Shown one piece after another: positions 34,668 to 34,997 of a stretch of DNA of 35,348 nt (positions within the stretch are counted from its first letter, which is position 1; the number at the start of each line of letters is the position of its first letter). The position numbers and the translations under genes were made by a program. The stretch is from IMG/VR virus record IMGVR_UViG_2687453512_000002; one strand, 5' to 3'. The notes beneath the pieces were generated by a model. That model worked only from the letters and a program-made list of their open reading frames with translations. It ran no database searches and was not told where the DNA came from. Source of the DNA: a virus. Lineage: Duplodnaviria > Heunggongvirae > Uroviricota > Caudoviricetes.

Positions 34668-34717
34668 ATGACAGACATTACAGCCAATGTGATTGTTGCG
34701 TATTTTCATGAAAGGAG
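34668..34717 (+). pseudogene. Tailspike gene 5-prime fragment (first ~10 codons only), truncated at the junction with rRNA sequence
   Basis: GGAG Shine-Dalgarno then ATG ACA GAC ATT ACA GCC AAT GTG ATT GTT = MTDITANVIV, matching the conserved head-binding N-terminus of P22-family tailspikes (MTDITANVVV…); the reading frame then runs into 16S rRNA sequence. Confidence 0.5.
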
Positions 34718-34997
34718 ATCACGAGAGCAAGCGGACCTCATAAAGTGCGTCGTAGTCCGGATTGGAGTCTGCAACTCGACTCCATGAAGTCGGAATCGCT
34801 AGTAATCGTGGATCAGAATGCCACGGTGAATACGTTCCCGGGCCTTGTACACACCGCCCGTCACACCATGGGAGTGGGTTGCAAAAGAAGTAGGTAGCTT
34901 AACCTTCGGGAGGGCGCTTACCACTTTGTGATTCATGACTGGGGTGAAGTCGTAACAAGGTAACCGTAGGGGAACCTGCGGTTGGATCACCTCCTTA
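34718..34997 (+). rRNA. rrs: 16S rRNA, 3-prime terminal ~280 nt only (5-prime ~1.26 kb absent)
   Basis: Matches the enterobacterial 16S 3-prime end through …GTCGTAACAAGGTAACCGTAGGGGAACCTGCGGTTGGATCACCTCCTTA, including the anti-Shine-Dalgarno. Confidence 0.95.

Follow-up and report, generated by a model that had tools for sequence, protein, structure and literature searches.

The distal end of the prophage and the start of its tailspike gene

The stretch of DNA analysed here (hereafter the window; 35,348 nucleotides in all) contains a prophage with the same P22-like gene order as the CUS-3/P22-like K1 prophages integrated at argW in RS218, APEC O1, S88 and other ST95-type strains, including torI, the early region and the lysis genes, then the P22-type portal, coat and ejection proteins, and then the immI region with arc, ant and sar. 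The first prophage gene, lying beside attL, is torI (positions 1-201, minus strand), which codes for an excisionase-like protein. As position 1 is the final base of the torI stop codon, equivalent to CP033092.2:1522706, the window has been cut on its left side at a gene boundary just inside attL; in the genome a 17-nt att core is situated 73 nt to the left of this point. A late-region moron block (31884-32333 and 32382-32918), placed after the ejection genes and ahead of the arc/ant immunity region, has genes for a YafO-family toxin and a ClpP-like protease, which are annotated in the same way in APEC O1 and in the type strain.

The immunity region includes the sar antisense RNA (33599-33665, minus strand) and ant (33666-34568, plus strand), which codes for a P22-type antirepressor and is frameshifted in the window by a single-nucleotide deletion at approximately 34365. 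This deletion converts CCGGCGC to CCGCGC, splits the gene into two open reading frames (33666-34370 and 34310-34567), and is the sole difference from CP033092.2 over 34.7 kb. The intact allele with GG was recovered at all seven of the other loci that were checked, making the deletion private to the window; it represents either an error of the consensus or a true, private mutation. It would be in keeping with a consensus of lower quality, yet could equally be a genuine change.

Downstream of ant we find an intrinsic terminator on the plus strand (34585-34612), with the hairpin GACCCAGC-TTCG-GCTGGGTT at 34585-34604 followed by a run of seven T residues. As the original prediction had it, a tailspike gene follows this terminator and begins normally, with a Shine-Dalgarno-like GGAG at 34656-34659, an ATG at 34668 and a translation starting MTDITANVIV. 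The part of this gene that is retained on the plus strand (34668-34696) amounts to 29 nt, i.e. codons 1-9 plus two nucleotides of a CUS-3-type endosialidase tailspike. The APEC O1 and S88 prophages are 100% identical to the window up to 34696, and it is at this very position that the homology to the tailspikes of CUS-3/P22-like prophages, APEC O1, epsilon34 and others breaks off. The last five nucleotides before the break (34692-34696) are ATTGT, which is the target site of the insertion sequence ISEc12. In the CUS-3-group prophages, an intact tailspike with P22 head-binding and endosialidase domains is accompanied by an acetyltransferase gene with AAGACTC repeats, intS, torI and att sites in argW; the window is devoid of the remainder of the tailspike, the conversion gene, the integrase gene and attR.

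A fragment of ISEc12 lies between the tailspike and the 16S rRNA

In BLAST comparisons the homology to phage sequences extends to 34696 and that to 16S rRNA commences at 34719, leaving about 22-26 nt that would otherwise be unaccounted for. We found that 34697-34722 (TGCGTATTTTCATGAAAGGAGATCAC) is derived from neither the tailspike nor the 16S gene, and is an exact match to nucleotides 1-26 of the 2,581-bp ISEc12, a member of the IS21 family. The window thus contains, on the plus strand, the left-end tip of this element, with the last one to four nucleotides of the tip (TCAC, 34719-34722) being ambiguous with 16S. This stub is the key to the locus and went unnoticed in the original prediction, which had the tailspike passing directly into 16S at around position 1260 of the gene. 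The placement on the 16S gene was sound, with 34719 corresponding to position 1264 and the 3' end of the 16S falling at 34997, but the switch is not direct.

The stub sits at exactly the site at which ISEc12 is inserted in the type-strain genomes, and these differ from the rest of the CUS-3 group in having a tailspike split by this element. Beyond nucleotide 26 of ISEc12 the genome continues with TCAATAAC..., whereas the window reads GAGAGCAAGC..., which is 16S sequence. ISEc12 shows the features of its family, namely TG...CA termini, imperfect terminal inverted repeats, a 5-bp target duplication and the istA and istB genes, all of which are shared by the type-strain element; in contrast, the window holds nucleotides 1-26 only, and neither the transposase genes nor the right end of the element. 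The 39-aa open reading frame that runs through the tailspike, IS and 16S segments is spurious.

The point of transition can be placed quite precisely. Positions 1264-1267 of the 16S gene read TCGC in all seven rrn copies of both complete assemblies of the lineage (CP033092.2 and AP043894.1), and the A at 34721 must therefore come from ISEc12. Consequently, the breakpoint falls either between 34721 and 34722 or between 34722 and 34723, with a single C shared by the two partners and the 16S beginning at position 1267. An overlap of the full four nucleotides, TCAC, requires a 16S variant of the kind found in the unrelated strains 1448 and 1444. We had also considered that A34721 might mark a site variable among the 16S copies of the strain itself, and hence a branch in the assembly graph; this is refuted by the uniform TCGC of all seven copies in both complete assemblies. 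The microhomology at the join is thus 1-4 nt, and nucleotides 1-26 of ISEc12 match the 16S sequence that they displace (positions 1241-1266) at just 9 of 26 positions. The join lies 26 nt within the left inverted repeat of ISEc12, and the terminus of the element has not left its original target.

Finished genomes of the type-strain lineage have a tailspike split by ISEc12

We then searched the segment 28000-34720 of the window against 5,426 complete Escherichia coli genomes. This recovered many matches of 100% identity, all halting at 34696, with the exception of two that run on to 34720: NZ_CP033092.2, from DSM 30083 (= ATCC 11775), the type strain, and NZ_AP043894.1, from JCM 20135. Hence, ISEc12 is inserted at this site in two of the 5,426 genomes, both from the type-strain lineage. 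Positions 1-34722 of the window are colinear with 1522706-1557428 of CP033092.2, with no mismatches and one single-nucleotide gap. In the complete genomes the element is present in full, starting with TGCGTATT and ending with AATACGCA, with TG...CA ends, flanking direct repeats of ATTGT (5 bp), and the genes istA, coding for a protein with an rve domain, and istB, coding for one with an IstB_IS21 domain. It is found at four places per chromosome.

In CP033092.2, in AP043894.1 and in the finished AGSE01 scaffold, ISEc12 splits the tailspike after codon 9, within codon 10. In silico removal of the element together with one copy of ATTGT restores an open reading frame of 981 aa that differs by one nucleotide from the tailspike gene of APEC O1. 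The product of the latter orthologue shows, in Pfam searches, an N-terminal P22 Head_binding domain and, beyond it, the endosialidase N-terminal, beta-propeller, beta-barrel, tail-spike and chaperone domains; based on this domain set, the reconstructed tailspike is of the CUS-3 type and specific for the K1 capsule. Given that ISEc12 splits the endosialidase tailspike after codon 9, the prophage probably lacks a working receptor-binding protein, and any particles that it makes are probably devoid of tail spikes and non-infective. The original prediction had likewise surmised a prophage without its receptor-binding protein; a non-functional tailspike is indeed probable, but the reason is the insertion and not a truncation at the rRNA.

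On the 3' side of ISEc12 the complete genomes continue with the remainder of the tailspike (annotated as 2,913 nt), a hexapeptide acyltransferase gene, intS, the tRNA-Arg gene argW and yfdC. The 17-nt att core, AATGGTGTCCCCTGCAG, is found within argW at attR and is repeated at attL. Comparison with related genomes, which had been recommended as a means of finding a full tailspike and attR, was accordingly informative, in that both are present in CP033092.2 and AP043894.1, the tailspike being split by ISEc12. It also bears on the earlier statement that the prophage ends within the tailspike and has no attR, tRNA attachment site or conversion genes. This is an accurate description of the contig; it does not apply to the genome, where all of these lie downstream of ISEc12.

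The acyltransferase gene begins with an array of the heptanucleotide AAGACTC, with 30 copies in CP033092.2, 26 in AP043894.1, 15 in AGSE01 and 39 in APEC O1, and the annotated lengths of the gene differ because these copy numbers do. From its resemblance we take the gene to be akin to neuO, the phase-variable K1 capsule O-acetyltransferase of CUS-3. The differences in copy number between stocks or assemblies of one strain reflect either real phase variation or miscounting of the repeats. A further observation concerns JCM 20135, the chromosome of which (NZ_AP043894.1; 4,903,600 bp) is colinear with that of ATCC 11775 wherever loci were compared, and has the same insertion of ISEc12 in the tailspike. 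Its metadata name 'feces from diphtheria convalescent' as the source, an origin story that belongs to E. coli K-12, and the metadata or the strain label thus look mismatched.

The ribosomal RNA partner

The remainder of the window consists of the 3' part of a 16S rRNA gene and the spacer that follows it. The 16S part, on the plus strand (34723-34997), covers positions 1268-1542 of the gene (from 1267 when the C at 34722, common to both partners, is included), and Rfam reports matches of SSU_rRNA_bacteria over 34661-34984 (E=4e-32 and 4e-22). Downstream of it is a 16S-23S spacer of the Glu type (34998-35348, plus strand) containing tRNA-Glu(ttc) at 35083-35158, detected by both Rfam and ARAGORN, and StyR-44 at 35236-35344, detected by Rfam; the reported presence of a normal spacer with tRNA-Glu is thereby borne out. 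Rfam, ARAGORN and the alignments together account for the 16S 3' domain, the spacer tRNA and the 23S leader. In comparison with a complete rrnG or rrnE operon of E. coli (16S, tRNA-Glu, 23S), the window is limited to 16S positions 1267-1542 and the spacer: it stops 3 nt short of the start of the 23S gene, and contains no promoter, no 5' part of the 16S and no 23S. This right end does not coincide with a gene boundary and is probably the end of a contig.

The identity of the rrn copy was pursued in the two complete genomes. The seven operons of CP033092.2 are nearly identical to each other, and each of them departs from the window sequence at 34721, 35282 and 35324. In contrast, the operons of AP043894.1 are heterogeneous, with eight variable columns in the 16S, including position 1279, as well as differences in the spacer. 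Two of them, rrnG and rrnE, are exact matches to the window over 34722-35348, while rrnC and rrnB differ from it at 16S position 1279 and at the two spacer sites (35282 and 35324); the window ends 24 nt after 35324, the last base that separates rrnG and rrnE from rrnC, rrnB and rrnA, a point at which a de Bruijn contig built with a short k would be expected to stop. According to the paper on the type-strain genome (Meier-Kolthoff et al., PMC4334874), as many as eleven nucleotides differ among the seven copies of the 16S gene; CP033092 is a hybrid assembly made with Unicycler from ONT and Illumina reads (PMC6395863). The uniformity of the rrn copies in CP033092.2 is best read as homogenisation of the consensus by hybrid assembly or polishing. 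This deserves notice in its own right, since homogenised rrn copies in a widely used reference can mislead reasoning based on alleles.

From the identity of the window to rrnG and rrnE of AP043894.1, it follows that the rRNA piece represents the rrnG/rrnE haplotype of the strain itself. A foreign origin of this piece, which the mismatches to CP033092.2 at 35282 and 35324 had suggested, was dropped in light of these AP043894.1 matches and the published heterogeneity (PMC4334874). The prophage and rrnG share a strand, with rrnG situated 271,039 nt upstream of the junction, while rrnE, rrnB and rrnC lie on the opposite strand at 4.55-4.85 Mb.

The junction in other assemblies

The junction itself was sought widely. 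A place spanning at least 80% of window positions 34300-35348 was absent from all 5,426 complete E. coli genomes, none of the 50,697 GenBank phage records covers the junction, and exact scans for it in IMG/VR, the GTDB representatives and JGI metagenomes returned zero matches. Similarly, the open reading frames specific to the window, namely the 39-aa fusion and the two Ant fragments, returned no record in an exact look-up.

We further retrieved contigs of the same lineage by an exact look-up of a lineage-specific protein encoded 4 kb upstream (28750-30765 of the window), which yielded 24 contigs. The finished AGSE01 scaffold (KK583188.1) continues through ISEc12 into the remainder of the tailspike, as do 11 similar places. 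Two JCM drafts (BAIM01000020 and BAKV01000021) stop at the equivalent of position 34695. Logan contigs from three different runs (DRR003147, SRR31602989 and ERR10882496) stop 28 nt into ISEc12 (...GATCACTC), i.e. 2 nt beyond the point at which the window switches, and show no branch. Given that ISEc12 occurs at four chromosomal places, short-read assemblies routinely stop at this location. Among the assemblies compared, the window is the sole one that runs on into rRNA.

Origin of the junction

Based on these observations, we propose that the junction between ISEc12 and 16S is, with high probability, an artefact by which two repeat-edge fragments were joined in a draft assembly. The draft contig of a type-strain-lineage genome would have carried the CUS-3-like K1 prophage and entered the multi-copy ISEc12 by a few bases, and its end would then have been joined to 630 nt from the collapsed rrn repeat of the same strain, with no homology between the two. 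The true chromosomal order would be ant, tailspike codons 1-9, ISEc12, the tailspike remainder, the neuO-like O-acetyltransferase gene, intS, attR in argW and yfdC.

Several features argue for such a join. Both sides are multi-copy repeats of one genome, with ISEc12 at four places and rrn at seven, and hence neither partner can be spanned by short reads. The independent short-read assemblies, namely the three from Logan and the two JCM drafts, break at this location, and the join is missing from the finished or long-read assemblies (CP033092.2, AP043894.1 and AGSE01 KK583188.1). The window resembles other misassemblies at repeat boundaries, in that a unique contig with an IS stub of k-mer size is joined to a fragment of collapsed rrn and ends inside the operon, an end that is typical of a fragmented draft; it departs from them in that the customary outcome is a contig end and not a join. 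As an overlap of 1-4 nt is unable by itself to link nodes in a de Bruijn graph, a chimeric read, gap-closing or scaffolding has to be assumed. We infer that the join arose either in silico or from a chimeric read, and the software step likewise: ambiguity of the correct path may have led to a chimeric read being kept, gaps may have been closed or contigs extended automatically, or a scaffolder may have abutted the repeat-edge contigs.

Alongside the need for such an additional step, two points count against an artefact. First, the right end of the window is compatible with k=25, while the IS stub of 26 nt, judged against the Logan contigs with their 28 nt at k=31, corresponds to about k=29, or to k=25 if TCAC is assigned to the 16S, and no common k could be fitted to both. 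Second, the rrnG/rrnE haplotype of the rRNA piece would also be expected of a real intrachromosomal event.

The foremost alternative, already put forward together with a chimera at an rRNA locus in the original prediction, is a genuine rearrangement, here one private to the sequenced stock, in which an illegitimate join with 1-4 nt of microhomology linked the left inverted repeat of ISEc12 to 16S position 1267 of rrnG or rrnE. The partner is the strain's own, with 34723-35348 being identical to both rrnG and rrnE in the JCM 20135 assembly; this is compatible with an artefact and with a real event alike. The orientation of rrnG allows the join to be the novel joint of a tandem duplication of about 271 kb or of an excised circle, whereas a join with rrnE, which sits at 4.55 Mb on the other strand, would mark one end of a large inversion that unbalances the replichores. 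Moreover, the private frameshift in ant leaves room for the stock being a diverged derivative.

Nevertheless, we regard a real event as unlikely. A simple deletion to an rrn operon cannot yield the join and is excluded by geometry, as rrnG shares the strand of the prophage but is upstream of it, and rrnC, rrnB and rrnE are on the other strand. A real event would entail either the inactivation of a 16S gene or the 271-kb duplication, or, with rrnE, rrnB or rrnC, a megabase inversion asymmetric about the origin; such a duplication or inversion could come about by illegitimate recombination, albeit rarely. The breakpoints coincide with neither the IS terminus nor an att site, and there is no homologous repeat at which recombination might have occurred. 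The join was not reproduced in any independent sequence of the lineage, being missing from the two complete genomes, the AGSE01 scaffold, the two JCM drafts and the three Logan assemblies, as well as from the full set of 5,426 complete genomes. Finally, both breakpoints fall at spots where assembly fails, which is what an artefact predicts and what a real event would have to attribute to coincidence. Thus, of the two possibilities raised originally, the chimera is favoured, and a rearrangement would have to be reconciled with a join that is seen in no contiguous assembly of the lineage.

A third possibility is an inter-strain chimera, in which a contaminated or mixed sample would have supplied the rRNA fragment of another E. 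coli strain. In CP033092.2 none of the seven rrn copies agrees with the window at 34721, 35282 or 35324, and strains 1448 and 1444 match 34719-35348 at 100%, TCAC included. We nonetheless judge this to be very improbable: rrnG and rrnE of AP043894.1 are exact to the window from 34722 onward, the A at 34721 is accounted for by the IS, and the divergence reported for the 16S genes, with up to 11 differences between the seven (Meier-Kolthoff et al.), points to the CP033092.2 copies having likely been homogenised.

Lastly, the presence of an IS21-family end at the junction could evoke a product of transposition, such as a cointegrate or an adjacent deletion, that joined the prophage to rrn, and the missing tailspike could evoke an engineered P22 hybrid of the Mud-P22 kind, as Mud-P22 elements lack the tailspike gene; both are scarcely credible and were rejected, as joints made by the transposase sit at the IS terminus (TG/CA) and the break here is 26 nt inside it, while there is no Mu end sequence and the prophage is the natural CUS-3-like element of the type strain at argW.

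Consequences for annotation

With the assembly artefact as the preferred reading, annotation of the locus as a fusion of a tailless prophage to rRNA should be avoided, as should its use in defining prophage boundaries. We recommend that 34697-35348 be treated as unreliable and that the tailspike be annotated as IS-interrupted. The main value of the case is in quality control, and it offers no new biology. The CUS-3-like K1 prophage of the type strain, with its endosialidase tailspike split by ISEc12, is of modest biological interest and is already visible in public genomes.

A minor observation emerged from the scans with the rRNA part of the window. An exact 33-nt E. coli sequence from the 16S end and spacer returned no match in the GTDB type-strain representative of E. 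coli, perhaps as a result of masking of its rrn regions in this collection. The same 33-nt sequence turns up on tiny contigs, in many cases of very low coverage, in unrelated GTDB representatives, including Microvirga, Actinoallomurus, Streptosporangium, Limosilactobacillus, Streptomyces and several MAGs, where it is most simply explained as E. coli contamination.
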